Assembly: GCF_055900595.2 (NCBI RefSeq)
Contig: NZ_CM148325.1
DNA length: 64,000 bases
Strand: one strand, 5' to 3'
This document shows, piece after piece, positions 4,080 through 19,368 of this stretch. The first letter of the stretch is position 1; each line of letters starts with the position of its first letter. The notes beneath the pieces were generated by a model. That model was not told the DNA's origin, did no database searches, and saw only the letters and a program-made list of their open reading frames with translations. The translations under genes and the position numbers were made by a program.

Positions 4080-5579
4080 ATGCTAAATTTATTTGTTGGC
4101 CTTGATATATACACAGGGCTTTTGTTATTACTTGCTCTGGCATTTGTGTTGTTCTACGAAGCAATCAATGGTTTTCATGACACGGCGAATGCGGTGGCAA
4201 CCGTTATTTATACTCGTGCCATGCAACCACAACTTGCTGTGGTGATGGCGGCATTTTTTAACTTTTTTGGCGTATTGCTAGGCGGACTTAGCGTTGCCTA
4301 TGCCATTGTCCATATGTTACCAACCGATTTGCTATTGAATATGGGGTCAACCCACGGTCTGGCGATGGTCTTTTCCATGCTGCTGGCGGCGATTATCTGG
4401 AACCTGGGAACGTGGTTCTTTGGTTTACCTGCTTCCAGTTCGCACACCTTGATTGGCGCGATTATCGGCATCGGTTTAACCAACGCGCTGTTAACCGGCT
4501 CATCGGTGATGGATGCGTTAAACCTGCGTGAAGTGACCAAGATTTTCTCCTCGCTGATTGTCTCCCCCATCGTCGGCCTGGTCATTGCAGGAGGACTGAT
4601 TTTCCTGCTGCGCCGTTTCTGGAGCGGGACGAAAAAGCGTGACCGCATTCACCGTATTCCTGAAGATCGCAAAAAGAAAAAGGGCAAACGTAAGCCGCCA
4701 TTCTGGACGCGTATTGCCCTCATTGTTTCCGCTGCGGGCGTGGCATTTTCGCACGGTGCGAATGACGGGCAGAAAGGGATCGGTCTGGTGATGCTGGTAC
4801 TGGTGGGGATTGCCCCTGCTGGTTTCGTCGTCAATATGAATGCGTCTGGCTATGAAATTACCCGTACCCGCGATGCAGTGACTAACTTCGAACACTATCT
4901 GCAACAGCATCCTGAACTGCCGCAGAAGTTGATCGCGATGGAACCGCCATTGCCTGCGGCATCGACTGATGGCACGCAAGCGACGGAGTTTCACTGTCAT
5001 CCGGCAAATACCTTTGATGCGATTGCGCGCGTTAAAACGATGCTGCCAGGCAATATGGAAAGTTACGAGCCGTTAAGCGTGAGTCAGCGCAGCCAGCTGC
5101 GCCGCATTATGCTGTGCATCTCTGATACCTCCGCGAAGCTGGCGAAACTGCCAGGCGTCAGTAAAGAAGACCAGAACCTGCTGAAAAAACTGCGCAGCGA
5201 TATGTTAAGCACCATTGAGTACGCTCCGGTGTGGATCATCATGGCAGTAGCTCTGGCGCTCGGCATTGGCACCATGATTGGCTGGCGTCGTGTAGCGATG
5301 ACCATCGGTGAGAAGATTGGTAAGCGCGGCATGACGTATGCGCAAGGCATGGCGGCACAAATGACGGCGGCAGTGTCTATCGGCCTTGCCAGTTATATTG
5401 GGATGCCCGTCTCCACAACACACGTACTCTCATCTGCCGTAGCAGGGACGATGGTGGTGGACGGCGGTGGGTTACAGCGTAAAACGGTAACCAGCATCCT
5501 GATGGCGTGGGTATTTACTTTACCGGCGGCGATTTTTCTTTCTGGTGGGTTGTACTGGATAGCATTGCAGTTGATTTAA
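4080..5579 (+). CDS. pitB: Low-affinity inorganic phosphate transporter (PiT family)
   Basis: 499-aa polytopic membrane protein with duplicated GANDGQKG / GxNDxxN-type PiT signature regions ([10 protein letters not shown] ... [12 protein letters not shown]) and a central hydrophilic lysine-rich loop. Confidence 0.9.
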
Positions 5580-5587
5580 CCTTCCTG

Positions 5588-5627
5588 AAAATGCCCGGTC
5601 CTGGCGATCGGGCATTTCCATTTTTGA
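5588..5627. terminator. Bidirectional hairpin between convergent pitB and yghT
   Basis: Inverted repeat aaatgcccgg...ccgggcattt followed by a T-run (catttttg), in the 48-bp gap between pitB (+) and yghT (-). Confidence 0.5.
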
Positions 5628-6320
5628 CTAGTGATAACCACGCGCGGTCATAAAATCCGTAATCGCTTTTTCTGCATCAACCAGCACCTTTTCCAGTGGC
5701 TGATTAGCATCGATATCAACCAGTTGTGCACCGCCAAAGGTTAACTGTGGCGTTATGGCAATCTTCCTCGCCAGCGATTCCCGTTTATGGTCGGGTTTAC
5801 GCGCGCAGGCAACTTCAAGGTCAACATTGAGTTTGATGACCAGATCAGGTTTATGGCTCGCCATCCAGTGAAACGCTTTACGTTCCTGGCTTGCCAGCCA
5901 TGAGACAAACCGGCCGCCTTCAACGTTAGGCGGGAACACTGTACCATCGTAAGCGCCAGGAATTTGGTCCTGAGGATAACGGTCGGTTAGAACAATTAAC
6001 CCGCGACGACGACAGGCAAGCATATGACGAAAGCGCAGTAAGCGACGGGCGACAAACGCTGTAATTACCAGCGCCGGAACTGGCCCAGGCAATTTTTTTG
6101 CTGTTTTCACCTGATTTCGTTCAATTGTTTTATGTAAGGATTTTCCCATCAACGGTAATTTTGTCACTGCACGACCGACATTTCCGGCCTGTTTTCCTAA
6201 ATGAACTCTTTCGGCAGCACCATATTTTTCGACAACGGTAATGAGATGTTCACACACCGTTGACTTGCCTGAACCATCGCTACCAATAACGGCAATTAAT
6301 GGAGGTGTTATTGACTGCAT
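5628..6320 (-). CDS. yghT: Uncharacterised P-loop ATP-binding protein, NMP-kinase-like fold
   Basis: 230 aa; N-terminal Walker [10 protein letters not shown]; internal LTDRYPQD (DRY-type motif); paralogous to the next two genes. Confidence 0.8.
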
Positions 6321-6493
6321 GAATATATCCTTTAATTTAAATATCCATTAAAAATATTTATTTGGTTAATATGTTTTTATGAAAGCGTAATTCAGGTCAA
6401 TGTCACAATTAACCATTGTCACAATAAGGTTGAACGGATATTCTGAGCACGGACCACGTAATATTCAATACATTATTTGCTGCCGGGTTTTTC

Positions 6494-7207
6494 GTGAATC
6501 AACGTAATATGTCAATAATTAATTCCACGCCAGTGCGTGTTATTGCCATTGTAGGATGTGATGGTTCAGGTAAATCGACCCTCACGGCAAGCCTGGTAAA
6601 TGAACTGGCAGCAAGAATGCCAACAGAACACATTTATCTCGGGCAATCGTCCGGGCGAATTGGCGAATGGATTTCACAGCTCCCTGTTATTGGCGCACCT
6701 TTTGGGCGTTATTTGCGAAGTAAAGCGGCACATGTGCACGAAAAGCCCTTAACACCGCCTGGCAATATTACTGCGCTGGTTATCTATCTGCTTTCCTGCT
6801 GGCGGGCGTACAAGTTTCGCAAAATGTTGTGTAAAAGCCAGCAAGGCTATCTGCTCATCACCGACCGCTACCCGCAGGTTGAAGTGCCGGGTTTTCGCTT
6901 TGATGGCCCGCAATTGGCAAAAACCACGGGCGGTAACGGCTGGATAAAAATGTTAAGGCAGCGCGAGCTGAAGCTGTACCAATGGATGGCGTCTTATTTG
7001 CCCGTATTGTTGATTCGTCTTGGCATTGATGAACAAACCGCGTTTTCGCGTAAACCTGACCATCAACTGGCGGCGTTACAGGAAAAAATCGCCGTTACGC
7101 CGCAACTGACATTCAATGGCGCCGGGATCCTTGAACTGGATGGTCGGCAACCAGCCGATGAAATTATGCAAGCGTCACTACGCGCAATTCACGCCGCGCT
7201 TTCCTGA
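6494..7207 (+). CDS. yghS: Uncharacterised P-loop ATP-binding protein, NMP-kinase-like fold
   Basis: 237 aa; Walker A GCDGSGKST; ITDRYPQ; C-terminal SRKPDH...TPQLTF shared with yghT. Confidence 0.8.
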   Translation: MNQRNMSIINSTPVRVIAIVGCDGSGKSTLTASLVNELAARMPTEHIYLGQSSGRIGEWISQLPVIGAPFGRYLRSKAAHVHEKPLTPPGNITALVIYLLSCWRAYKFRKMLCKSQQGYLLITDRYPQVEVPGFRFDGPQLAKTTGGNGWIKMLRQRELKLYQWMASYLPVLLIRLGIDEQTAFSRKPDHQLAALQEKIAVTPQLTFNGAGILELDGRQPADEIMQASLRAIHAALS

Positions 7208-7238
7208 TCACCAAAATGGATAGGGGATGATTTAACGA

Positions 7239-7997
7239 ATGGATGCACTACAAACACAAACTGTTAATAGTACAACCGTGCCGCAGCCCAACTACATTCC
7301 GGGGCTGATTGCGGTGGTCGGGTGTGATGGCACCGGTAAATCCACGCTGACCACCGACCTGGTGAAATCGCTGCAACAACACTGGCAAACCGAGCGCCGC
7401 TATTTGGGGCTGCTCTCCGGCGAAGACGGCGACAAAATCAAACGATTGCCGTTGGTTGGCGTCTGGCTGGAACGGCGACTGGCGGCCAAATCCTCGAAAA
7501 CCCAAAGCATGAAAACCAAATCTCCAGCGCTATGGGCGGCGGTGATTATGTACTGCTTCTCGCTGCGAAGAATGGCGAATCTACGCAAGGTTCAGCGACT
7601 GGCGCAAAGTGGCGTTCTGGTGGTCAGCGATCGCTTCCCGCAGGCTGAAATTTCGGGCTTTTATTATGACGGACCGGGGATTGGCGTCGAGCGCGCGACC
7701 GGGAAAATCAACCAATTTCTGGCGCAGCGCGAGCGACAGTTATACCAACAAATGGCGCAGTATCGTCCTGAATTAATCATTCGTTTGGGGATTGATATTG
7801 ATACTGCCATCTCCCGCAAGCCTGACCATGACTATGCCGAGCTGCAGGACAAAATCGGCGTCATGTCGACGATTGGCTATAACGGCACAAAAATTCTTGA
7901 GATTGATTCCAGAGCGCCCTACAGCGAAGTGCTGGAACAGGCACAGAAGGCGGTTTCTCTGGTTGCCATCGTTTCTGACCGCCGAAGTTTAACTTAA
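7239..7997 (+). CDS. yghR: Uncharacterised P-loop ATP-binding protein, NMP-kinase-like fold
   Basis: 252 aa; Walker A GCDGTGKST; VSDRFPQ; SRKPDH motif; third paralog. Confidence 0.8.
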   Translation: MDALQTQTVNSTTVPQPNYIPGLIAVVGCDGTGKSTLTTDLVKSLQQHWQTERRYLGLLSGEDGDKIKRLPLVGVWLERRLAAKSSKTQSMKTKSPALWAAVIMYCFSLRRMANLRKVQRLAQSGVLVVSDRFPQAEISGFYYDGPGIGVERATGKINQFLAQRERQLYQQMAQYRPELIIRLGIDIDTAISRKPDHDYAELQDKIGVMSTIGYNGTKILEIDSRAPYSEVLEQAQKAVSLVAIVSDRRSLT

Positions 7998-8042
7998 GGC
8001 TGGCGGGATACTTTTTACTATCAACGATAAGGTCAGGCTGAA

Positions 8043-9392
8043 TTGGCGGGTTTTAACATCAAACATTGGTTTGCAGATGGCGCGTTTCGCACCATTATTC
8101 GCAATAGCGCCTGGTTAGGCTCCAGTAATGTCGTGAGCGCTTTGCTGGGTCTGTTGGCGCTCTCGTGTGCCGGTAAAGGGATGACGCCCGCCATGTTTGG
8201 CGTACTGGTGATTGTGCAATCGTACGCCAAGTCGATCAGCGATTTTATTAAGTTTCAGACATGGCAGTTGGTGGTGCAGTACGGAACGCCAGCCTTGACC
8301 AACAATAATCCGCAGCAATTTCGCAATGTCGTCTCATTTTCCTTCTCGTTGGATATCGTCAGCGGCGCGGTGGCGATTGTCGGCGGCATTGCCTTACTCC
8401 CTTTTCTTTCCCATTCATTAGGTCTGGATGACCAAAGCTTTTGGCTGGCAGCGCTGTATTGCACGCTCATTCCTTCAATGGCTTCCTCCACGCCGACCGG
8501 CATTCTGCGTGCGGTAGATAGCTTCGACTTAATTGCTGTACAGCAGGCGACGAAACCTTTTCTGCGCGCAGCGGGGAGCGTCGTTGCCTGGTATTTTGAC
8601 TTTGGTTTTGCGGGTTTTGTTATTGCCTGGTACGCCTCGAATCTTGTTGGCGGCACCATGTACTGGTGGTTTGCCGCACGTGAATTACGCCGCAGAAATA
8701 TCCATAACGCGTTCAAATTGAATCTGTTTGAGTCTGCCCGACACATCAAAGGCGCGTGGAGTTTTGTCTGGTCAACCAACATTGCCCATTCCATCTGGTC
8801 GGCGCGTAATTCGTGCAGCACAGTGTTGGTGGGGATCGTGTTAGGACCCGCTGCCGCCGGGTTATTTAAAATCGCCATGACATTCTTCGACGCCGCCGGA
8901 ACGCCAGCGGGTTTACTAGGTAAAAGTTTTTACCCAGAGGTGATGCGTTTAGATCCGCGCACCACCAGACCGTGGTTGTTAGGCGTGAAGTCCGGTTTAC
9001 TGGCGGGCGGAATCGGTATTCTGGTGGCGCTCGCGGTGTTGATCGTCGGCAAGCCGCTCATTTCGCTGGTGTTTGGCGTTAAGTATCTCGAAGCGTATGA
9101 CCTGATTCAGGTGATGCTGGGCGCAATTGTGATTTCGATGCTGGGCTTCCCACAGGAGTCATTGCTATTGATGGCGGGAAAACAGCGTGCTTTTCTCGTG
9201 GCGCAAACCATCGCCTCAATCGGCTACATCGTATTGCTGTTCATGTTCTGTCATCTGTTTGGCGTGCTGGGGGCTGCATTTGCTTACTTCGCTGGGCAAT
9301 GTCTGGATGTGGTGCTCTCGCTAATTCCAACCTTAAAGGCATTTTTTCAGCGCCATTCCTTGCTTTATAACGCAGCCGGAGAGAAATCCTGA
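8043..9392 (+). CDS. yghQ: MOP/Wzx-like polysaccharide or lipid flippase family inner-membrane protein
   Basis: Polytopic membrane protein (many hydrophobic helices across 449 codons). Start uncertain: the track uses a TTG at 8043; the first in-frame ATG is at 8181 but would remove the first predicted TM helix. Stop overlaps the next start (TGATG at 9389-9394). Confidence 0.75.
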   Translation: MAGFNIKHWFADGAFRTIIRNSAWLGSSNVVSALLGLLALSCAGKGMTPAMFGVLVIVQSYAKSISDFIKFQTWQLVVQYGTPALTNNNPQQFRNVVSFSFSLDIVSGAVAIVGGIALLPFLSHSLGLDDQSFWLAALYCTLIPSMASSTPTGILRAVDSFDLIAVQQATKPFLRAAGSVVAWYFDFGFAGFVIAWYASNLVGGTMYWWFAARELRRRNIHNAFKLNLFESARHIKGAWSFVWSTNIAHSIWSARNSCSTVLVGIVLGPAAAGLFKIAMTFFDAAGTPAGLLGKSFYPEVMRLDPRTTRPWLLGVKSGLLAGGIGILVALAVLIVGKPLISLVFGVKYLEAYDLIQVMLGAIVISMLGFPQESLLLMAGKQRAFLVAQTIASIGYIVLLFMFCHLFGVLGAAFAYFAGQCLDVVLSLIPTLKAFFQRHSLLYNAAGEKS

Positions 9393-10228
9393 TGATGAGA
9401 AAATATTTCCCGCTTGAGGCTAGCGAGCGTCTATTTGTTGCGATTGAAGAAGATGATGTCGTTGATGCACAGGTCAGTTTGCCGCCGACTATCGCACTAA
9501 GTTGTACCACCGAAATCATCCATGATAATTACGCGTTATGCCTGAAATTCTGGCTGGATGGTGTTAATCGTCAGGAGCTACTGCGTTTAATCCGCAAACA
9601 GGCGAAAGGCGATGAGCTGACGACAGACGAGCGCAAAAAGTATAAATACATGCGAGCGCGCTACAAGCATCTGCGCTTTGCGCAACGGCTGTATTTAAAG
9701 AAGCATCAGGCCGGATTTTTATTCGGCAAAACGACCGTTTTTTTGGGGCGTTTTCAGGACGGCTTTCGTAACGGTAAGAAAAATATTGTGTCGTATTACG
9801 GCAACCTGTTACGGGTTTATTTAAGCTCTCCGGTCTGGTCGTTGGTGAACTATTCATTACGCCATAGCCAGTTAGAAAGCGTAAGCGGTTTTATTGCCTA
9901 TCGGCAAAAGCAAATGCATACCCTGAAAGAGATAATTGCCAAACCGCGACTAACTGGCAGGGAATTTCATGATGTGCGAAAAATCATCAGCCAGCAGGTT
10001 TCTTATTACGACACCCTAAGATCGCTTGATCCTGAAAATAAAGAGGCGTTACAGATTTCCCGCTTCCTCGCCGCCATTAATGGCCTGATGGGGGATAAAC
10101 ACGACGACATGGTGGCGGATGATATGGAAAACCGCCAGTCGTATGATGCACCGATGGCGCTGGATAGCGATATTCGTCAGCGCTTAGAACTGCTGATTTC
10201 GCGTTTCCCACTCTATCCGGAGCAATAA
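9392..10228 (+). CDS. Hypothetical protein (278 aa), translationally coupled between yghQ and a YtfJ-like gene
   Basis: Intact ORF with 1-nt overlaps to both neighbours (yghQ stop / its ATG; its stop / next ATG); no motif I can assign; basic, soluble-looking. Confidence 0.6.
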   Translation: MMRKYFPLEASERLFVAIEEDDVVDAQVSLPPTIALSCTTEIIHDNYALCLKFWLDGVNRQELLRLIRKQAKGDELTTDERKKYKYMRARYKHLRFAQRLYLKKHQAGFLFGKTTVFLGRFQDGFRNGKKNIVSYYGNLLRVYLSSPVWSLVNYSLRHSQLESVSGFIAYRQKQMHTLKEIIAKPRLTGREFHDVRKIISQQVSYYDTLRSLDPENKEALQISRFLAAINGLMGDKHDDMVADDMENRQSYDAPMALDSDIRQRLELLISRFPLYPEQ

Positions 10229-10788
10229 TGCCATCTCGTTGGATTTTCGCTCTGATCATCGCACTCTTAGCGCCAGGCGCGGTGGCACACAATTTCGTCA
10301 CTGGTAAAACGGTTACCCCTGTTTATATCCAGGAAGGCGGTGAGTTGCTTCTGAATAGCGACGACGAAATTCACTACCAAAAGTGGAACAGCACACAGCT
10401 GGCGGGAAAAGTCCGCATTATTCAGTATATCGCCGGGCGTAAGTCGGCGAAGAAAAAGAACTCACTGTTAATTAAAGCGGTTGAAGCGGCAAACTTTCCG
10501 CAGGATCGTTTTCAGCCCACCACCATTGTGAACACCGATGATGCCATCTTTGGTACCGACTATTTTGTCGTTGGCAAAATCGAAAAAAATAAACGCCGCT
10601 ATCCATGGGCGCAATTCGTTATTGACGGCAATGGACAGGGACGTGTTGCCTGGCGCTTGCCGGAGCAGAGTTCAACCATTCTGGTGCTGAATAAAAACGG
10701 GCAAATTCAGTGGGCAAAGGACGGCAGCCTGACGCCGGAAGAGGTAGATCATGTCATTGCGCTGGCGCAGAAGCTGATCAATGAATAA
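10228..10788 (+). CDS. YtfJ-family periplasmic protein
   Basis: 186 aa with N-terminal signal peptide (MPSRWIFALIIALLAPGAVAHNF). Strong resemblance over the whole length to remembered E. coli YtfJ (...KTWNS.QL.GKVR..Q.IAGR.SAK..N..LI.A...A..P.DR.Q.TTIVNTDDAI...YPW.QF..D.NG... QWAKDG.LTPEEV...). Confidence 0.7.
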   Translation: MPSRWIFALIIALLAPGAVAHNFVTGKTVTPVYIQEGGELLLNSDDEIHYQKWNSTQLAGKVRIIQYIAGRKSAKKKNSLLIKAVEAANFPQDRFQPTTIVNTDDAIFGTDYFVVGKIEKNKRRYPWAQFVIDGNGQGRVAWRLPEQSSTILVLNKNGQIQWAKDGSLTPEEVDHVIALAQKLINE

Positions 10789-10818
10789 AAAACTCAAAGG
10801 ATTGAGGGCGTTAGTGAG

Positions 10819-11889
10819 ATGAAGCTGGTTGAACACTACATCATGCGTGGTACGCGCCGTCTGGTGCTGATTATCGTCGGTTTTCTGATCTTTATTTTCG
10901 CCAGCTACTCCGCACAGCGTTATCTGACCGAAGCGGCAAATGGGACATTAGCTCTTGATGTTGTGCTGGATATCGTTTTCTACAAAGTGCTGATTGCACT
11001 GGAGATGCTGTTACCTGTTGGACTATATGCTTCAGTTGGCGTGACGCTAGGGCAAATGTATACCGACTCGGAAATTACCGCTATCTCCGCGGCGGGGGGC
11101 AGTCCGGGACGCTTGTACAAAGCCGTTCTTTATCTGGCGATACCGCTAAGTATTTTTGTCACCCTTCTGTCGATGTATGGTCGTCCGTGGGCTTATGCGC
11201 AGATTTATCAACTGGAGCAACAGTCACAGTCGGAGCTGGATGTTCGCCAGTTGCGGGCAAAGAAATTTAACACTAACGATAACGGACGAATGATCCTTTC
11301 GCAGACGGTTGATCAGGATAATAATCGCCTGACTGACGCGCTGATTTATACTTCTACTGCCAATCGAACCCGCATTTTCCGCGCCCGTTCGGTTGATGTG
11401 GTTGACCCATCACCTGAGAAACCGACCGTTATGTTGCATAACGGGACCGCCTATCTTCTCGATCATCAGGGGCGTGACGACAACGAACAGATCTACCGTA
11501 ATCTGCAATTACATCTGAATCCGCTGGATCAAAGCCCTAACGTCAAACGCAAAGCAAAATCGGTCACGGAGCTGGCGCGCTCCGCCTTTCCTGCCGATCA
11601 TGCCGAACTGCAATGGCGACAAAGCCGTGGCCTGACAGCATTGTTGATGGCGCTGCTGGCCATTTCATTAAGTCGGGTAAAACCGCGGCAAGGGCGATTT
11701 TCAACGTTATTGCCACTGACGTTGCTGTTTATTGCCATTTTTTATGGCGGCGACGTCTGCCGTACGCTGGTGGCTAACGGCGCGATTCCCCTCATTCCTG
11801 GTTTGTGGTTAGTACCCGGACTCATGCTAATGGGCCTGCTGATGCTGGTCGCACGCGACTTCTCTTTGCTGCAGAAATTTTCCCGATGA
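10819..11889 (+). CDS. LptF/LptG-family (YjgP/YjgQ) permease, paralog 1
   Basis: 356 aa; N-terminal 3-TM bundle, central soluble (periplasmic beta-jellyroll-like) region, C-terminal TM bundle with RQGRFS motif reminiscent of LptF/LptG (NPRQGR); located outside the canonical lptFG locus. Confidence 0.75.
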   Translation: MKLVEHYIMRGTRRLVLIIVGFLIFIFASYSAQRYLTEAANGTLALDVVLDIVFYKVLIALEMLLPVGLYASVGVTLGQMYTDSEITAISAAGGSPGRLYKAVLYLAIPLSIFVTLLSMYGRPWAYAQIYQLEQQSQSELDVRQLRAKKFNTNDNGRMILSQTVDQDNNRLTDALIYTSTANRTRIFRARSVDVVDPSPEKPTVMLHNGTAYLLDHQGRDDNEQIYRNLQLHLNPLDQSPNVKRKAKSVTELARSAFPADHAELQWRQSRGLTALLMALLAISLSRVKPRQGRFSTLLPLTLLFIAIFYGGDVCRTLVANGAIPLIPGLWLVPGLMLMGLLMLVARDFSLLQKFSR

Positions 11890-12965
11890 ATGTTTTCAGC
11901 CGCTATTTAATCCGTCATCTCTTTCTCGGTTTTGCCGCCGCCGCAGGGCTATTGCTGCCGCTTTTTACCACCTTCAACCTGATTAACGAACTGGATGATG
12001 TCGGCCCGGGCGGTTATCGCTGGACCCAGGCGGTGCTGGTGGTGCTGATGACCTTACCGCGCACACTGGTCGAACTTTCGCCGTTTATCGCCTTATTGGG
12101 AGGGATTGTCGGCCTGGGGCAACTATCGAAAAACAGTGAGCTTACCGCCATTCGCAGCACGGGGTTTTCTATCTTCCGTATTGCACTGGTGGCGCTGGTT
12201 GCCGGGATATTGTGGACTGTTTCGTTAGGCGCGATAGATGAGTGGGTGGCGTCGCCATTGCAGCAACAGGCGCTGCAAATCAAATCGACTGCCACCGCGT
12301 TGGGGGAGGACGATGACATTACCGGCAATATGCTTTGGGCCAGGCGCGGTAATGAATTTGTGACGGTGAAATCGCTGAACGAGCAGGGCCAGCCTGTGGG
12401 CGTGGAGATATTTCATTATCGCGACGATCTCTCGCTCGAATCCTACATTTTTGCACGCAGTGCCTCCATTGAAGACGACAAAACATGGATCCTGCATGGT
12501 GTGAATCATAAAAAATGGTTGAATGGCAAAGAAACGCTGGAAACATCAGATAATCTTACCTGGCAATCGGCCTTCACCAGTATGAATCTTGAAGAGTTAT
12601 CGATGCCGGGAAATACTTTTTCTGTCCGTCAACTTAATCATTACATCCATTATTTGCAGGAAACTGGGCAACCCAGCAGCGAATACCGCCTTGCACTGTG
12701 GGAAAAACTGGGACAACCCATCCTGACCCTGGCGATGATTTTGCTGGCTGTGCCGTTTACCTTTAGTGCCCCGCGTTCGCCTGGGATGGGTAGCCGTCTC
12801 GCTGTAGGCGTCATCGTGGGCTTACTTACCTGGATCAGCTATCAAATCATGGTCAATCTGGGATTGCTATTTGCGTTGAGCGCACCTGTTACCGCGCTCG
12901 GTTTACCGGTAGCGTTTGTGCTGGTGGCGTTGAGCCTGGTGTATTGGTATGACAGACAACATTAA
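11886..12965 (+). CDS. LptF/LptG-family (YjgP/YjgQ) permease, paralog 2
   Basis: Start set at ATG 11886 (MNVFSRYLIRHLF...), overlapping the upstream stop by 4 nt (ATGA); same TM-soluble-TM architecture as the upstream gene. Confidence 0.75.
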   Translation: MNVFSRYLIRHLFLGFAAAAGLLLPLFTTFNLINELDDVGPGGYRWTQAVLVVLMTLPRTLVELSPFIALLGGIVGLGQLSKNSELTAIRSTGFSIFRIALVALVAGILWTVSLGAIDEWVASPLQQQALQIKSTATALGEDDDITGNMLWARRGNEFVTVKSLNEQGQPVGVEIFHYRDDLSLESYIFARSASIEDDKTWILHGVNHKKWLNGKETLETSDNLTWQSAFTSMNLEELSMPGNTFSVRQLNHYIHYLQETGQPSSEYRLALWEKLGQPILTLAMILLAVPFTFSAPRSPGMGSRLAVGVIVGLLTWISYQIMVNLGLLFALSAPVTALGLPVAFVLVALSLVYWYDRQH

Positions 12966-12999
12966 ACCCGCCGTGGCGCAACACCACAGCGGGCTCACA

Positions 13000-14172
13000 T
13001 TACTGCTTCAGAGTAGCGAACGCTTGAATGATGGCATCAATTTGCTCACGACTGTGGGCAGCGTTTACGCTACAGCGCAGCAGCGTGATGCCTGCAGGCG
13101 CGGCAGGTGGCAGGATAAGATTCACATAAACGCCCAGCGAAATAAGCTCGCGCCAGATGCGTAAACCTTCCTCTTTCGAACCGATTATTACTGGCACTAC
13201 CGGGCTAATATGTGAACTTAACTCATAATCCAGTTTTTGCAGACCGTCATACAGATGGTTGGCATTATCCATCAGCTTTTGCCGCAACTCTGGTTGTGAG
13301 GCAATGGTTCTTAACGACGAGCGCACGGTCGCAATGCAGGACGGAGAAGGAGAGGCGGTAAAAATATACGGGCGGCTGCCGTAGCGCAACACTTCCATCG
13401 CTTCCGAACCGACAGCAAAACCGCCAATCGAGGCCAGACTTTTACTGAAGGTACCAACGATAATATCCACATCATCTTCAACGCCAACGGCTTCAGCCAG
13501 TCCGCGCCCCGTTGCGCCTAACACGCCAAACGAATGCGCTTCATCGACAATCAAATAACCACCGAGACGACGTTTGATATCAACAATTTCCGCCAGCGGC
13601 GCAACGTCACCGAGCATACTGTAGATGCCTTCAACGATGATAATCGCCTCTTTTGCCCGTTCACCGAGGCGAACCATGCGCCGTTCCAGATCTTTAGCAT
13701 CGTTATGGCGGAAACGAATAATTTCCGCGCCACCGAGAGAACAGGCGTCATAAATACTGGCGTGGCTGTCGGCATCCAGTAACACCACGGCGTTATGGTC
13801 GGCAAGTGCGCTGATGACGCCTAAATTAGCGGTATAACCGGTTGAAAAAACGATAGCGGTAGGGCGATTAAAAAACTCGGCGATCTCTTTCTCTAACGCC
13901 AGATGCGGCGCATAACTGCCGTTTGCCATACGAGAACCGGTGGTGCCGGTGCCTTGGGCCGCTAACGCTGCCTGACCTTCGGCGATGGCATCATGATTAA
14001 AGGTTAAACCGAGATAATTATTGGTCCCGGCCAGAATCACTTTTTTATTGCCGATCCGACCTTCGGTGGCGGAATACACTTCATCAATACAGGTGCCAAA
14101 CGGTGTTAACCCGTTGTCACTAAATTGCAGTCGCTCGCCAGCAAGGCGCGCATATTTATCGTATAGCCCCAT
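13000..14172 (-). CDS. PLP-dependent alpha-oxoamine synthase (serine palmitoyltransferase / BioF / Kbl family)
   Basis: 390 aa; family-typical N-terminal GSRMANGSY.....LE.E.A.F, and PLP-lysine motif ...IVGTFSKSLASIGGF...; start overlaps the stop of the upstream carrier-protein gene. Confidence 0.85.
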   Translation of the reverse strand: MGLYDKYARLAGERLQFSDNGLTPFGTCIDEVYSATEGRIGNKKVILAGTNNYLGLTFNHDAIAEGQAALAAQGTGTTGSRMANGSYAPHLALEKEIAEFFNRPTAIVFSTGYTANLGVISALADHNAVVLLDADSHASIYDACSLGGAEIIRFRHNDAKDLERRMVRLGERAKEAIIIVEGIYSMLGDVAPLAEIVDIKRRLGGYLIVDEAHSFGVLGATGRGLAEAVGVEDDVDIIVGTFSKSLASIGGFAVGSEAMEVLRYGSRPYIFTASPSPSCIATVRSSLRTIASQPELRQKLMDNANHLYDGLQKLDYELSSHISPVVPVIIGSKEEGLRIWRELISLGVYVNLILPPAAPAGITLLRCSVNAAHSREQIDAIIQAFATLKQ

Positions 14173-14420
14173 TATTTATTCTCCAGCCATGGAAGTAGTG
14201 TTTCCATTAATTGCGCAGGGGTTTTGACATCCAGCAGAATATTAATAGGAATGGAAATATCGAATCTGTCTTCCAGCATCATTAAGAGATCCATCACTTT
14301 GATCGACTCCAGGCCAAGATCGTTGACGAGATCGCTGTCGGGCTTAATTTCCACACCGTTTTCGACCAAATCCTGTAAACAGGAAAGGATGTAATCCATT
14401 ACTATTTCACGATTTACCAT
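14172..14420 (-). CDS. Acyl carrier protein (phosphopantetheine-binding)
   Basis: 82 aa, acidic, with DLGLESIKVMDLLMMLEDRF resembling the ACP DSL/ESx attachment-site helix. Confidence 0.8.
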   Translation of the reverse strand: MVNREIVMDYILSCLQDLVENGVEIKPDSDLVNDLGLESIKVMDLLMMLEDRFDISIPINILLDVKTPAQLMETLLPWLENK

Positions 14421-14451
14421 AGAAACGTTAACACACCTTTAAACAAGACAA

Positions 14452-15366
14452 TCAAAATAGCCCGTTGCGTAATGCGTGTTCCAGGCTAATCCCGGGAAAC
14501 CAATTAATATCTTCAGAAATACGGTTATTACTTGCTGACCAGTCGGCGTGGGTTAATTCACGGATTTTCGAGCGGGTCAGCATAGGTTCTTTACCTGCCA
14601 GGCGACTCAACGCGGTACTGATATCCGCAAGGCAGGTGAGTACCGACAGAGGAATACCAACCATTCGAACGGAACCGCAACGGGCGTCGGCGGCAAGTTG
14701 CTGTACGCGTTGCCAGTCATAGCCGCCGGCGACGCCATCGCATAATTCATAGGTTTGCGTCTGTACAGTTTCGGCGCTTAACCACTGCCCCACGGCTTGC
14801 GCGAAATCGGTGACGTGCAGGAAAGAGAGCTGTGTATCTGGCGCACCAAGTCGTGGCAGCAGGCCGCGCAGCATCCAGTCAAACAGCGGTTTTAACTCTT
14901 TATCGCCGGGACCATACACGGCTGTCGGGCGAAAAATGCCCAGCGTAATTTCGTCAGCCATTGCGGTCAGTCGTTGTTCGGCGACGTGTTTGGAATTTGC
15001 GTACCAGGAGAGTTCGGGATGACGCGCCGCCAGCGAAGAGATAAACAGAAAACGTTGGCAAAAGCCGCTCTCTTTTGCCGCTTGCATCAGGCGCAGGCTG
15101 CCGTCAACGTTACAGCGGGTAAAAATCTCTTCTTTGTGTCCGCGCACTTGTCCGGCGCAATGGACCACCGCGCTGGCTCCGGCAACCAGTTCGCTAAGCG
15201 AATGTGTATCTTCCAGCGAACCGCGCACCCAGATGAGATTATCATTGACGTGAGCGCGGGCAGTACGCGTCAATGCGCGAACGTGAAAGCCGCGGGCGAG
15301 CAGGTTATCGATAATATATTTACCGATAAACCCGGTAGCGCCCGTCACCGCGACAGTTTGATTCAT
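14452..15366 (-). CDS. NAD(P)-dependent epimerase/dehydratase-family (extended SDR) reductase
   Basis: 304 aa with N-terminal Rossmann motif VAVTGATGFIGKYI; 4-nt overlap with the upstream AMP-ligase gene. Confidence 0.8.
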   Translation of the reverse strand: MNQTVAVTGATGFIGKYIIDNLLARGFHVRALTRTARAHVNDNLIWVRGSLEDTHSLSELVAGASAVVHCAGQVRGHKEEIFTRCNVDGSLRLMQAAKESGFCQRFLFISSLAARHPELSWYANSKHVAEQRLTAMADEITLGIFRPTAVYGPGDKELKPLFDWMLRGLLPRLGAPDTQLSFLHVTDFAQAVGQWLSAETVQTQTYELCDGVAGGYDWQRVQQLAADARCGSVRMVGIPLSVLTCLADISTALSRLAGKEPMLTRSKIRELTHADWSASNNRISEDINWFPGISLEHALRNGLF

Positions 15367-17111
15367 GCCAGGGATTCCTGCACATGAAGGCTTGCAGCAT
15401 AAGCCTTCTGATAACGTTTTTTCGCTTCCGCACGGGCAGGCTTGCCGGAGGACGTTCGGGGAATACTGTGGGGCGGCAACAGATCGATAGCCGCGGTTAC
15501 GCCAAATTCGCTTTGGATCCGTGCTGCCAGTGCGTGGATAAGCTGCCCACGACGTTCTTCGTCGCTGATCCTACACTGGATCTGCAGAATGATTTTTTCC
15601 TGGGCGGTAACAAAAGCAATCGCATCGCCAGAATGAATTTCCGGTTCCTGTTCCGCAATATATTCAATATCCTGCGGCCAGATATTACGGCCACGAATAA
15701 TAATCAGATCTTTAATGCGTCCGGTGACATACAGATAACCGTCCAGCAGATAACCGAGGTCGCCGGTATCTAACCAGCCCGTCGCGGCAATCTCGTCTTG
15801 CGAAACCTGGTCGCCAAAGTAACCGCTCATCAGGCTGGGGCCGGAGATGCAAATATGGCCTACCACACGTTCCGCGACCGGCATACCTGCTTCATTGCGG
15901 ATTTCAATGCCATGTTCCGGCAACGCTTTACCGCAGTTGACGAAAGTCGATACGGCGCGTGTTTCAGCACCCGGCGCGACGGCTTTGCCCTGATATTCAA
16001 GGATGTCGCGATCCACTTCGTTAACCACAACCCCGGAGGCTTCATCAGAGAAGCTGACAGCCAGCGCATTTTCTGCCAGTCCGTAGCACGGCATGAACGT
16101 TTTATCGTCAAAGTTAACCTGACGGAAACATTCAGCGAATTGATGGAGTTGTTCTGCGGAGATGGGTTCTGCACCAATACCAGCGACGCGCCAGCAGGAA
16201 AGATCCAGTTCAGCGAGATCTTTTTCATTCACGCGGCGCTGGCACAATTCATAGCCAAACGGCGGCGCAACGGAAACGGTGCCGCGATTTTTACTGATCA
16301 ATTTAAGCCATTGCAGAGGACGCATGGCAAAATCCTGAGTGCGCAAATAATCTACTGAAAGCTGCGTGGCGACGGGGGTCAGGAGAAAGCCGACCAGTCC
16401 CATATCATGGTAGAAAGGCAGCCAGGAGACGCAGCGGTCGCCAGGGCGTAATTTAATGCCATCGTGGCTTATAGCACGTAGATTAGCCATCACTTCGCGA
16501 TGGGTGATAATGACGCCACGGGGAAAACGGGTGCTGCCGGAGGTGTACTGGAGGTAGGCGATATCGTTCGGAACTGGATGCTGGAGTGCAACATCGGCTT
16601 CCGGTAATGCCTTAAACCAGGCGTGGCTTAAAACATGTAATTCGGGGTTGTTATGCGTAGCGGCATTGACCAGTGGCAACCACTCATCACCAGTGATAAT
16701 GGCTGCGGGCTGGCAACTTGCCAGTAAACCCTGCAGTTTGGCGCTCCAGGAATCCCGCTGACCGATGCCCATTGGAATCGCCAACGGGACGGCGACTAAG
16801 CCGGCATACTGGCAGGAAAAAAAAGCCTCTACGAACCCGCTACTGGTTTCGGCAATCAGCGCCACGCGATCGCCTTTTTTCAGGTTCAGCGATAACAACC
16901 GCTTCGCACCAGCTTCGGCACGCGCTTTTAACGTCTGATATTCCAGTTGATCTTCAAGTTGGCAACGTCTGTCATAAAAATTCATTCCGGCGCTACTCAG
17001 AGCGGCGTAGTCCAAAGCATCAACCAGCGTTGGAAAATCGGCATAGCGCATAGGTAGGGAATGCGTAAAGATTTTATTAGACATATACACCACGAAAAAA
17101 TTGGATATCAA
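15363..17111 (-). CDS. AMP-dependent synthetase/ligase (fatty-acyl-AMP ligase / acyl-ACP synthetase-like)
   Basis: 582 aa with the adenylate-forming signature YTSGSTRFPRGV (consensus YTSGSTGxPKGV) and downstream GYG/ETG-type core motifs; exact start (17111 vs 17084) uncertain. Confidence 0.85.
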   Translation of the reverse strand: MISNFFVVYMSNKIFTHSLPMRYADFPTLVDALDYAALSSAGMNFYDRRCQLEDQLEYQTLKARAEAGAKRLLSLNLKKGDRVALIAETSSGFVEAFFSCQYAGLVAVPLAIPMGIGQRDSWSAKLQGLLASCQPAAIITGDEWLPLVNAATHNNPELHVLSHAWFKALPEADVALQHPVPNDIAYLQYTSGSTRFPRGVIITHREVMANLRAISHDGIKLRPGDRCVSWLPFYHDMGLVGFLLTPVATQLSVDYLRTQDFAMRPLQWLKLISKNRGTVSVAPPFGYELCQRRVNEKDLAELDLSCWRVAGIGAEPISAEQLHQFAECFRQVNFDDKTFMPCYGLAENALAVSFSDEASGVVVNEVDRDILEYQGKAVAPGAETRAVSTFVNCGKALPEHGIEIRNEAGMPVAERVVGHICISGPSLMSGYFGDQVSQDEIAATGWLDTGDLGYLLDGYLYVTGRIKDLIIIRGRNIWPQDIEYIAEQEPEIHSGDAIAFVTAQEKIILQIQCRISDEERRGQLIHALAARIQSEFGVTAAIDLLPPHSIPRTSSGKPARAEAKKRYQKAYAASLHVQESLA

Positions 17112-17454
17112 AAATAAAATGACAATAATGCGGTGGATTATATAGGCATAAAAGATAAATGAGATAGTATTTTCATCAGTGTGAAAATGAACATTGATTT
17201 AAATAATGAGTTTGAGTTTTTTGTTTTTATTGTGAATGATATTTAATTTATGAATGTATTAAGAAGAAGCCTTGTCCGGTCGCCTTAAATCGACAAAAGG
17301 CATTGTGGCGCTTCTGTGTAGTCTCTGACCTTATCGTAATCATTAATAAATGCTATTTATTCGTCGTTTGTATTCATTGGGTTGATTATTAAGGTGCCGT
17401 TCGTTGCTGTTGCAACCTGTTTGTCACCGTTAATTATTTGTTACCCACAGAACT

Positions 17455-18597
17455 ATGGAATGCGATCTGCTGATGATTAAAATTGAAAAAGTAATTAATA
17501 AAAATGACCTTAAGGCATTTATCGCTTTTCCGTCATCACTTTATCCCGACGATCCAAACTGGATACCCCCTTTATTCATTGAACGCAACGAGCATTTGTC
17601 TGCGAAAAATCCGGGGACGGACCATATCATCTGGCAGGCGTGGGTGGCAAAAAAAGCCGGGCAGATAGTTGGGCGAATTACCGCGCAAATCGATACCTTG
17701 CACCGTGAGCGTTACGGTGAAGATACCGGTCATTTCGGCATGATTGACGCCATTGATGATCCGCAGGTTTTTGCCGCGTTGTTTGGCGCAGCGGAAGCGT
17801 GGTTGAAGTCACAAGGTGCAAGTAAGATCAGCGGTCCTTTCAGCCTGAATATCAATCAGGAAAGCGGATTACTGATTGAAGGTTTCGATACACCACCCTG
17901 TGCGATGATGCCGCACGGTAAACCGTGGTATGCCGCGCATATTGAACAATTGGGTTATCACAAAGGCATTGATTTACTAGCGTGGTGGATGCAGCGAACC
18001 GATCTCACTTTCTCTCCGGCGCTAAAAAAACTGATGGATCAGGTGCGTAAGAAGGTGACCATTCGCTGCATCAATCGCCAGCGGTTTGCCGAAGAGATGC
18101 AGATCCTGCGTGAGATTTTCAACTCTGGCTGGCAGCACAACTGGGGATTTGTGCCGTTTACCGAACATGAATTCGCGACTATGGGCGATCAACTTAAATA
18201 TCTGGTGCCGGACGATATGATCTACATCGCTGAGATTGATTCTGCACCCTGCGCGTTTATTGTTGGCTTGCCAAACATCAACGAGGCGATTGCCGATCTG
18301 AACGGATCGCTCTTTCCCTTCGGCTGGGCAAAATTGCTGTGGCGTTTAAAAGTCAGCGGTGTGCGAACTGCGCGAGTACCGCTGATGGGCGTGCGGGACG
18401 AGTATCAGTTTAGCCGCATCGGCCCGGTGATTGCGCTGTTATTGATTGAAGCCTTACGCGATCCGTTTGCCCGCCGGAAGATCGATGCGCTGGAAATGTC
18501 ATGGATCCTCGAAACCAATACAGGCATGAATAACATGCTGGAACGCATTGGGGCAGAGCCGTACAAGCGTTACCGATTGTATGAAAAGCAGATTTGA
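17455..18597 (+). CDS. yghO: YghO-family protein, intact; possible GNAT-like N-acyltransferase
   Basis: 380-aa intact ORF where K-12 (as I recall) carries only a yghO pseudogene next to glcC; acyltransferase assignment is my inference from fold-like sequence features, not a motif I can pin down. Start could also be Met at 17473. Confidence 0.65.
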   Translation: MECDLLMIKIEKVINKNDLKAFIAFPSSLYPDDPNWIPPLFIERNEHLSAKNPGTDHIIWQAWVAKKAGQIVGRITAQIDTLHRERYGEDTGHFGMIDAIDDPQVFAALFGAAEAWLKSQGASKISGPFSLNINQESGLLIEGFDTPPCAMMPHGKPWYAAHIEQLGYHKGIDLLAWWMQRTDLTFSPALKKLMDQVRKKVTIRCINRQRFAEEMQILREIFNSGWQHNWGFVPFTEHEFATMGDQLKYLVPDDMIYIAEIDSAPCAFIVGLPNINEAIADLNGSLFPFGWAKLLWRLKVSGVRTARVPLMGVRDEYQFSRIGPVIALLLIEALRDPFARRKIDALEMSWILETNTGMNNMLERIGAEPYKRYRLYEKQI

Positions 18598-18603
18598 TGG
18601 CAG

Positions 18604-19368
18604 TCACCCCTGCTTCATCTCCAGCGGCACCGCCGAGCGAATCAAATGGTGGCCTTCCAGCTCGATATCGTGGAGATTCTTTTTCACGGTCCGCACATGA
18701 TCGCGTGCTGCGCGCTGGGCGACGTGCGGCAGCCGCTGCAACACCGCGTTGTAGATCCGCGCATGCTGGCGATCGATCTGCTTTTTTTGCTGTGGTCGAT
18801 GGTAGAGATTATTTACGCTGGCAAACACTGAATTAAACATCAGATCGGTCAATGATTGCAGCGTAAACACCAACACCTGATTGTGAGAAGCCTGACAAAT
18901 GGCGAGATGGAAAGCGTGATCCAACTGCGCATGTTCGATCAGCGAAATCTCTTTGTTGTTCTCACTGGCGGCGAGCATTTTTTCATAACAGCGGGTTATC
19001 ACAACAAAATCAGCCTGGGTTCCCAGCGTTGCCGCAAGCCTTGCCGATTCCCCCTCCAGCAATGCGCGAACGTCGAGCAGATCGTACAGCGTTCGCGGCT
19101 GCGTGCTGAACAGATGAATTAGCGGGCTGGTATCCTGCACCCGATTAAGCCGTGCGACACGAGAATCGCGACCCTGCGCTGTTTCAATAATCCCGCGCCC
19201 GCGCAGCACGGTCAGCCCTTCACGCAGTGCGGAGCGTGAGAAGCCGAGCTTTTCACACAGTCGACGTTCCGAGGGAAGCGGCTGACCGACCTTCAGTACG
19301 CCGTCGATAATTAACCGTTCGATACTCTCTGCAACCACTTCGCAAATAGGGCGACGTTCATCTTTCAT
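18604..19368 (-). CDS. glcC: GntR-family transcriptional activator of the glycolate operon
   Basis: Start placed at internal Met (MKDERRPICEVVAES..., ATG complement 19366-19368) giving 254 aa; N-terminal wHTH (GntR) and C-terminal FCD-like domain; divergent from glcD. Confidence 0.9.
   Translation of the reverse strand: MKDERRPICEVVAESIERLIIDGVLKVGQPLPSERRLCEKLGFSRSALREGLTVLRGRGIIETAQGRDSRVARLNRVQDTSPLIHLFSTQPRTLYDLLDVRALLEGESARLAATLGTQADFVVITRCYEKMLAASENNKEISLIEHAQLDHAFHLAICQASHNQVLVFTLQSLTDLMFNSVFASVNNLYHRPQQKKQIDRQHARIYNAVLQRLPHVAQRAARDHVRTVKKNLHDIELEGHHLIRSAVPLEMKQG

Follow-up and report, generated by a model that had tools for sequence, protein, structure and literature searches.

Three paralogous P-loop proteins, YghT, YghS and YghR, as candidate head-group kinases of the Escherichia coli sphingolipid locus

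The window analysed here is a stretch of 64,000 nucleotides from contig NZ_CM148325.1 (NCBI RefSeq assembly GCF_055900595.2), which carries at positions 5628 to 7997 the three P-loop protein genes yghT, yghS and yghR next to a flippase gene and genes for ceramide synthesis and Lpt-like export. In our view these three proteins are the strongest candidates for the enzymes that form the phosphate head group of the sphingolipid of E. coli. An earlier note, written from the sequence alone, had called three tandem paralogs of uncharacterised function at this site; the positions of its open reading frames (ORFs) were exact, the paralogy was confirmed by BLASTP (see below) and no paper characterising yghT, yghS or yghR was found. 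The window is a piece of the E. coli chromosome; its region from 5400 to 8100 matches E. coli FDAARGOS_448 at 100% identity and thousands of further genomes at 97-98%. In FDAARGOS_448, RefSeq annotates the same three ORFs, the first two as yghT and yghS and the third (yghR) as a hypothetical protein without a gene name. The product name of yghT and yghS, assigned by the Prokaryotic Genome Annotation Pipeline (PGAP), is deoxythymidine monophosphate (dTMP) kinase, a name carried by all 14 full-length records among those listed; 4,604 genomes match.

As outlined in Table 1, the genes from yghS to the LptG paralog follow one another with short gaps or overlaps up to position 12965 and look like one operon, in which the YtfJ-family gene belongs to the Enterobacterales version of the locus. 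Convergent to it runs a second operon (13000-17051, minus strand) comprising spt, the acyl carrier protein gene, the reductase gene and the gene of the fatty acyl-AMP ligase (FAAL), with yghO as the next gene. Judging from its stem and T-run, the hairpin between pitB and yghT is likely a bidirectional terminator. The divergent promoter proposed in the earlier note stands as far as the inversion of yghT and the AT-rich spacer are concerned, and the spacer is presumed to be a bidirectional promoter region; a search of it for sigma-70-like elements returned one weak match (6416-6444, plus strand), a number not above that of shuffled controls. The G+C content is 0.45 at 5501-7000 and 0.42-0.44 at 16501-18000, elsewhere about 0.52. 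These low-G+C stretches surround the divergent control regions yghT/yghS and FAAL/yghO, a pattern that would suit AT-rich and perhaps silenced promoters in an acquired locus. Neither a structured RNA nor a riboswitch was found in an Rfam scan of 5300-18700.

Table 1. Features of the kinase and sphingolipid region of the window (aa, amino acids; bits, profile score)
Feature	Position	Strand	Remarks
Hairpin	5589..5617		GC-rich; 12-bp stem with 6 GC pairs, then T-run; between convergent pitB and yghT
yghT	5628..6320	-	230 aa; Walker A G13-T21, DRYPQ 113-117, ARKPDH 173-178
Divergent spacer yghT/yghS	6321..6493		173 bp, AT-rich
yghS	6494..7207	+	GTG start; 237 aa; paralog, three motifs intact
yghR	7239..7997	+	252 aa; paralog, DRFPQ, three motifs intact
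yghQ	8043..9392	+	MOP (Wzx-like, Polysacc_synt) flippase; 449 aa
Probably CHAD-like, all-helical protein	9392..10228	+	278 aa; annotated as hypothetical; start overlaps the yghQ stop
YtfJ-family protein	10228..10788	+	186 aa; TIGR01626 210.8 bits (cut-off 151)
LptF paralog (LptF2)	10819..11889	+	TIGR04407 317.5 bits (cut-off 230)
LptG paralog (LptG2)	11886..12965	+	TIGR04408 306.8 bits (cut-off 240); RefSeq coordinates
spt, serine palmitoyltransferase	13000..14172	-	NF047599 595.8 bits (cut-off 500)
Dedicated acyl carrier protein	14172..14420	-	sub-threshold acyl carrier protein matches; RefSeq name
NAD-dependent epimerase/dehydratase-family (SDR) reductase	14452..15366	-	CerR-like by synteny; generic or sub-threshold matches
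Fatty acyl-AMP ligase (FAAL; ACS/AasR-like step)	15363..17051	-	NF006624 874.6 bits (cut-off 600); RefSeq start
yghO	17455..18597	+	380 aa; candidate bacterial ceramide synthase (bCerS), by synteny only

The paralogy of the three proteins is directly visible in pairwise BLASTP comparisons, which gave 42% identity for YghS and YghR (E 3e-61), 36% for YghT and YghS (E 3e-52) and 34% for YghT and YghR (E 2e-46); judged by sequence, the relationship is far above chance. These identities apply to the full length of the proteins, and the three-way alignment contains 56 invariant columns. Three motifs are shared, namely a Walker A motif G(S/C)DG(S/T)GKST, an internal DR(Y/F)PQ and a C-terminal (A/S)RKPDH. 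The first two had been described correctly in the earlier note, while its common SRKPDH does not hold for YghT, which reads ARKPDH. Among full-length orthologs all three motifs are intact in 85 of 87 T-type, 59 of 60 R-type and 54 of 54 S-type sequences. Since the motifs are thus kept in at least 95% of the orthologs of each paralog, none of the three resembles a pseudo-kinase and all of them look catalytically competent. An exhaustive profile search put the size of the family at 2,172 cluster representatives for E<=1e-3, or 1,285 for the stricter E<=1e-10; the three motifs are found again throughout the 150 representatives listed.

As far as profiles and motifs can tell, YghT, YghS and YghR form a distinct family inside the dTMP kinase (dTMPK) superfamily of P-loop phosphotransferases and are not dTMP kinases. 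A profile built from 26 diverse members matched the PDB sequences of solved thymidylate kinases (TMPKs) at E 4e-13 to 1e-7, the best being PfTMPK (4e-13) and the A. aeolicus TMPK (2e-9), and the three proteins are structurally similar to solved thymidylate kinases. In the alignment DRYPQ falls on the DRY motif of TMPKs and (A/S)RKPDH on their LID. Invariant in the 26 members are G13, D15, G16, G18, K19, G42, R114, P116, Q117, D125, G126, E146, R174 and P176. The family differs from Tmk in invariants of its own (PQ after DR(Y/F), D125-G126, E146 and the RKPDH LID), in its occurrence as three paralogs in an envelope-lipid locus and in an additional segment of about 40 residues (41-80) that separates the P-loop helix from the core. 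This segment is modelled at low confidence and, going by the model, could be a mobile cover above the acceptor site. The three proteins score 25.4, 24.9 and 31.8 bits against TIGR00041 (curated cut-off 83.25) and 18-26 bits against NF005923 (cut-off 193), and no Pfam family matches them at E<=1e-3, Thymidylate_kin reaching E 0.012 or worse. Because the TIGR00041 scores lie far under NCBI's own cut-off, the RefSeq name is not justified and is probably an over-annotation, which our analysis corrects. A role in anti-phage defence was also considered and rejected, since PADLOC returned only P-loop noise.

A scan of species-representative genomes yielded 79 loci with YghT orthologs (48-97% identity) from Enterobacterales, Xanthomonadales, Cellvibrionales, several orders of Betaproteobacteria, Myxococcales, Sphingomonadales and Desulfuromusa. 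For 82 loci with 10-kb flanks, ORFs were called and clustered, and the kinases were typed as T, S or R by best match. The kinase family is present in 82 of 82 loci (204 copies), followed by the family of the 278-residue protein (59), Spt (47), YghQ (47, with more found by weak tblastn matches), the CerR-like reductase (46), LptF/G-like proteins (39), YtfJ (38), FAAL (26) and YghO (25), the counts for the last two being limited by the 10-kb flank. The full triplet occurs in 53 loci, and in 52 of these it has the same arrangement, T on the minus strand followed by S and R on the plus strand, from Enterobacterales to Myxococcales. The separation into T, S and R and their fixed arrangement are thus ancient. 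The earlier note had named inheritance of the triplet independently of the lipid genes as a refuting finding, and this check came out in favour of its reading, as the triplet is co-inherited with those genes: spt lies inside the 10-kb flank at 44 of the 53 triplet loci versus 2 of the 19 loci with a single T-type kinase. In Serratia (S. liquefaciens) the spt operon is located on the other side of the triplet with the same gene set. One record, titled Martelella alba BGMRC 2031 (L035), contains an Enterobacterales-type locus with all genes at 61-78% protein identity to E. coli; its alphaproteobacterial label or its assembly may be wrong.

Within E. coli, 4,604 of 5,426 complete genomes contain the triplet and 4,066 the spt-containing 7.7 kb, so that about three quarters of them hold an intact locus for ceramide synthesis and Lpt-like export. 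The CerR-like reductase gene is co-located with spt in 46 loci, and yghO is syntenic with spt and CerR in 25 loci, from E. coli to distant gammaproteobacterial metagenome-assembled genomes. YghO gave zero matches to Pfam and NCBIfam and is, by its position, the obvious candidate for the ceramide synthase.

The 278-residue protein encoded behind yghQ, one of the most constant partners of the kinases, is probably CHAD-like. CHAD domains bind polyphosphate specifically, through His and Arg residues of a basic surface (PMC6537752). Like them, the protein is all-helical (AlphaFold model with a predicted local distance difference test score, pLDDT, of 94.5) and has the size of a 'long' CHAD domain (about 280 residues). 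The family alignment unveiled two pseudo-repeated motifs, the first with R88, K92, H93 and R95 followed by G119 and Q122-D123, the second with H193, R196 and (K197) followed by G234 and H237-D238. Eight of these and neighbouring positions are invariant (R88, K92, H93, R95, H105, H193, R196, H237), K197 is kept in at least 90% of the members, and such invariant His and Arg/Lys residues may parallel the polyphosphate contacts His253, Arg256 and Arg260 of CtCHAD. Furthermore, UniRef calls a 61%-identical ortholog a 'CHAD domain-containing protein', and one of 19 relatives matches Pfam CHAD (PF05235, 2e-5). The E. coli protein itself does not match that family, and HMMER searches with it against Pfam, NCBIfam and the PDB sequences returned nothing. 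A Foldseek search against the PDB gave no significant hit, solved CHAD domains included, which counts against the assignment. A proof of CHAD membership at the sequence level was attempted without success. The gene also differs from those of CHAD domains in its surroundings, as it adjoins a flippase gene and lipid genes and not genes of polyphosphate enzymes.

Beyond the triplet loci, the earlier note's context of a flippase and a lipid pathway applies only in part. It is correct for the triplet; across the wider family the most constant neighbours are a YghQ-type MOP flippase, sometimes fused to the kinase, and the CHAD-like protein, which the earlier note had not picked out. Two proteins of about 1000 residues (P0217, P0267) carry a complete MOP flippase ahead of the kinase (Polysacc_synt_3, 1e-74), and a third fusion joins a GT4 glycosyltransferase to a kinase (P0252). 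Many relatives of about 500 residues (P0162, P0168, P0178 and others) possess an N-terminal NTP_transf_5-like domain of about 250 residues, for which PF14907 was found at E<=1e-3 in 7 of 16 members; that this domain might be a fused 278-residue protein was rejected (hhalign probability 0.1). Relatives also sit in Wzx/Wzy polysaccharide clusters lacking spt, as in locus L008 with a flippase, a fusion kinase (7223-8731), a GT4 glycosyltransferase and Wzy. Locus L010 combines a kinase, a flippase and a homolog of the 278-residue protein. On a high-GC metagenomic contig (L004), two kinases and a flippase accompany a 285-residue homolog of the E. coli 278-residue protein (34% identity, E 3e-48), and next to this module (region 15071-16998) lie a PMT_2-family protein, a DAGK_cat (CpgB-like) kinase and a nucleotidyltransferase-like protein, so that both kinds of head-group system may coexist there.

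Outside Enterobacterales, in beta- and gammaproteobacterial loci (L051-L087; e.g. L063 8687-9235, L059 16617-17300, L076 9234-9977, L063 3112-3867), the recurrent neighbours of the kinases are two PAP2 phosphatases (the first resembling LpxE, the second UppP/PgpB), a lipid acyl 2-hydroxylase similar to OlsC/LpxO (219 bits), a lipid A 1-phosphate O-methyltransferase similar to LmtA (119 bits), an LptA-like protein, a GT4 glycosyltransferase and an RND efflux set. Except for the efflux set these proteins concern envelope lipids or glycans, and several of them act specifically on lipid phosphates. Taken together, kinase, flippase and CHAD-like protein constitute a conserved module that presumably works at the cytoplasmic face and whose three-kinase form is embedded in a proteobacterial sphingolipid locus.

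A functional comparison is offered by Caulobacter, in which CpgA-D make anionic ceramide phosphoglycerates (PMC11324152). The presumed role, equipping a bacterial ceramide with an anionic, phosphorylated head group, is the same; the pathway to ceramide diphosphoglycerate differs, as annotation and profile scans of the E. coli locus detected neither homologs of CpgA-D nor a glycosyltransferase. Homology of YghT, YghS and YghR to the Caulobacter ceramide kinase CpgB was rejected, because CpgB is diacylglycerol-kinase-like with a GGDG motif (PMC10331486) and the three proteins have a P-loop TMPK fold. Both loci carry a Polysacc_synt flippase (for Caulobacter see PMC11324152, S1 Text) and LptF2/G2. 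The latter are needed for sphingolipid transport in Caulobacter, where their loss is lethal, likely via the build-up of anionic sphingolipid in the inner membrane, and the same preprint shows LptF/LptG paralogs in the locus of E. coli UTI89 too (bioRxiv 10.64898/2026.04.12.717747). No sphingolipid flippase has been identified (PMC11087976), and research groups in this field describe both the flippase and parts of the formation of the head group as unknown (PMC11087976; PMC11324152).

Since the E. coli locus is without CpgA-D homologs and without a glycosyltransferase, the kinases are its only candidate head-group enzymes. We therefore favour, with a probability of roughly 0.45, a mechanism in which three ATP-dependent phosphotransferases build a phosphate-rich ceramide head group prior to flipping by YghQ and export by LptF2/LptG2. 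Ceramide, or its 3-keto precursor, would arise at the inner membrane, on its inner leaflet, and the three kinases would install the anionic head group with ATP at the cytoplasmic face, each adding a different phosphate, either in one chain (hydroxyl to mono-, di- and triphosphate) or at separate positions or hydroxyls. Enzymes of the dTMPK superfamily, including the polyphosphate kinase PPK3, do form phosphoanhydride bonds (PMC12995831). The phosphate moiety would be the ligand of the CHAD-like protein, flipping would be the task of YghQ, and LptF2/LptG2 would extract the product towards the outer membrane. We infer the lipid acceptor, the number and order of the phosphorylations and the role of the CHAD-like protein.

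An observation from other enteric bacteria touches on the starting acceptor. In 17 enteric loci, among them those of Serratia, Pantoea and Rosenbergiella, a small DgkA-like (DAGK_prokar) membrane kinase (family f10; L002 1422-1784) adjoins the yghO homolog; the E. coli window lacks this gene. As ceramide is phosphorylated in vitro by E. coli DgkA, ceramide-1-phosphate would be a plausible starting acceptor, the DgkA-like kinase could supply it, and this would give a rationale for the presence of the gene in these loci.

Several observations weigh against ceramide phosphorylation by the triplet. The full triplet is missing from 29 of the 82 loci, many loci show no spt within 10 kb, and some E. 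coli genomes keep the triplet without the spt segment. E. coli K-12 is one of these, a deletion remnant that retains yghTSR and has lost the ceramide genes. The relatives in Wzx/Wzy clusters without spt and the NTP_transf_5-like fusions fit a kinase of soluble head-group precursors at least as well as a lipid kinase. In addition, CerR is periplasmic in Caulobacter (PMC11087976), which leaves the order of flipping and modification uncertain.

The alternative that survives best, although we hold it to be unlikely, assumes soluble substrates: each kinase would phosphorylate a small alcohol, sugar or hydroxy-acid, and other enzymes would activate and transfer the resulting ester, as choline kinase operates with a cytidylyltransferase. 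The roughly 500-residue NTP_transf_5-like fusions, the GT4-kinase fusion and the proximity of relatives to glycosyltransferases, Wzy and flippases argue for such a scheme, and Caulobacter is reported to derive its head group from phosphoglycerate activated with cytidine diphosphate (CDP) (PMC12275187). However, the annotation and profile scans of the Enterobacterales and E. coli locus unveiled no nucleotidyltransferase and no CDP-alcohol transferase, so that together with the missing glycosyltransferase nothing is at hand to use the product. The need for three kinases is left unexplained as well, and the CHAD-like partner suggests a phosphate chain and not a single phosphate ester.

A phosphate chain is the core of the next possibility, which we consider rather improbable, namely a lipid-anchored oligophosphate. 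Here the paralogs would act in series, by analogy to nucleoside kinase, nucleoside monophosphate (NMP) kinase and nucleoside diphosphate kinase, and extend a phosphoanhydride-linked chain on ceramide. The CHAD-like protein would hold this chain, a Wzx-like flippase, of a kind that normally recognises lipid-pyrophosphates, would flip it, and LptF2/LptG2 would export it. The searchable literature contained no mention of ceramide pyro-, tri- or polyphosphate; if it exists, such a lipid would represent a new class of highly anionic outer-membrane lipid.

PPK3, the closest precedent of the module, provides the model for a third alternative, which we judge improbable: a heteromer of the paralogs would make or consume inorganic polyphosphate with the CHAD-like protein as polyphosphate-binding partner, and the lipid genes would be neighbours for another reason, e.g. 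phosphate supply or polyphosphate export. The parallels comprise the dTMPK superfamily, multiple adjacent paralogs and a CHAD-type partner; moreover, the phosphate transporter gene pitB is adjacent in Escherichia, and among structural matches 2plr, the cPPK3 homolog of S. tokodaii, ranks second. At the sequence level, the family profile matches 2plr/5h70 over the P-loop only, at E 3.9e-5 versus 4e-13 for canonical TMPKs, and E. coli already has PPK1. The fusions to a membrane flippase suggest that the substrate is membrane-bound. Sulfolobus PPK3 is made up of two adjacent 'thymidylate kinase' paralogs (Saci_2019/Saci_2020), whose genes share an operon with ppx, sixA and a CHAD protein gene, and its regulatory subunit has lost the DRX arginine (PMC12995831). 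All three E. coli paralogs keep this arginine, as do at least 95% of the orthologs, and the neighbours of the kinases are the flippase, the Lpt paralogs, PAP2 phosphatases and ceramide genes, with no recurrent ppx, sixA or pst family in the 82 neighbourhoods, 59 of which do contain a CHAD-like gene. Because of the lack of specific sequence affinity, the retained DRX arginine and, less clearly, the missing ppx/sixA/pst neighbours we file YghTSR apart from PPK3, as a separate family that may, by analogy, share the phosphate-onto-phosphate chemistry.

It is very unlikely that the proteins are P-loop ATPases which regulate or energise YghQ or LptF2/LptG2 instead of acting on a metabolite, even though the tight adjacency and the fusion to the C-terminus of a MOP flippase would suit such a function. 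MOP flippases are not known to be ATP-driven, the fold is of the NMP-kinase type and not ABC or RecA, and the conserved DRX and LID elements position a phosphate acceptor. The sphingolipid locus is without an LptB paralog of its own, which would favour an additional ATPase, but Caulobacter LptF2/G2 use the housekeeping LptB (bioRxiv 10.64898/2026.04.12.717747). Finally, extra thymidylate or nucleotide kinases, as the RefSeq name of yghS and yghT and the weak TIGR00041 matches would have it, are hardly credible in view of the scores given above, a gene context that is wholly envelope and lipid related and an essential tmk elsewhere in E. coli.

With respect to ceramide phosphorylation by the triplet, a phosphate-rich head group, if present, would have effects on the charge of the outer membrane, on the sensitivity to cationic antimicrobials and on recognition by the host, both in pathogenic E. 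coli and in genera like Serratia, Citrobacter and Hafnia. The recently recognised re-use of dTMP kinase paralogs together with CHAD proteins would then reach beyond archaeal polyphosphate metabolism. In K-12, yghQ was repeatedly mutated during adaptation to chlorhexidine, and its deletion doubles the minimum inhibitory concentration (PMC8170033). These data fit an anionic surface product and weakly hint at a continuing effect of the remnant module on the cell surface.

The literature on yghT, yghS, yghR, yghQ and yghO offers strain lists and mutation tables as its only information on function, the searchable literature yielded no lipid analysis of an E. coli sphingolipid, and the E. coli locus is mentioned only in one figure legend, as the 'sphingolipid operons' of UTI89 (bioRxiv 10.64898/2026.04.12.717747). 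While the kind of protein, a dTMPK-superfamily kinase, is already known, the module of kinase, flippase and CHAD-like protein, the antiquity of the triplet and the parallel to PPK3 are new as far as searched. The analysis thereby nominates concrete candidates in a model organism, three kinases, a flippase and a CHAD-like protein.

Further upstream in the window, the interval between hybG and yghU differs from FDAARGOS_448, where IS1397 is annotated at this place, for which the window has no room. The interval contains a palindromic unit of the repetitive extragenic palindromic/bacterial interspersed mosaic element (REP/BIME) type in two direct copies of 84 nucleotides (639-722 and 738-821, 96% identical), which give rise to spurious ORFs with repeated peptides.

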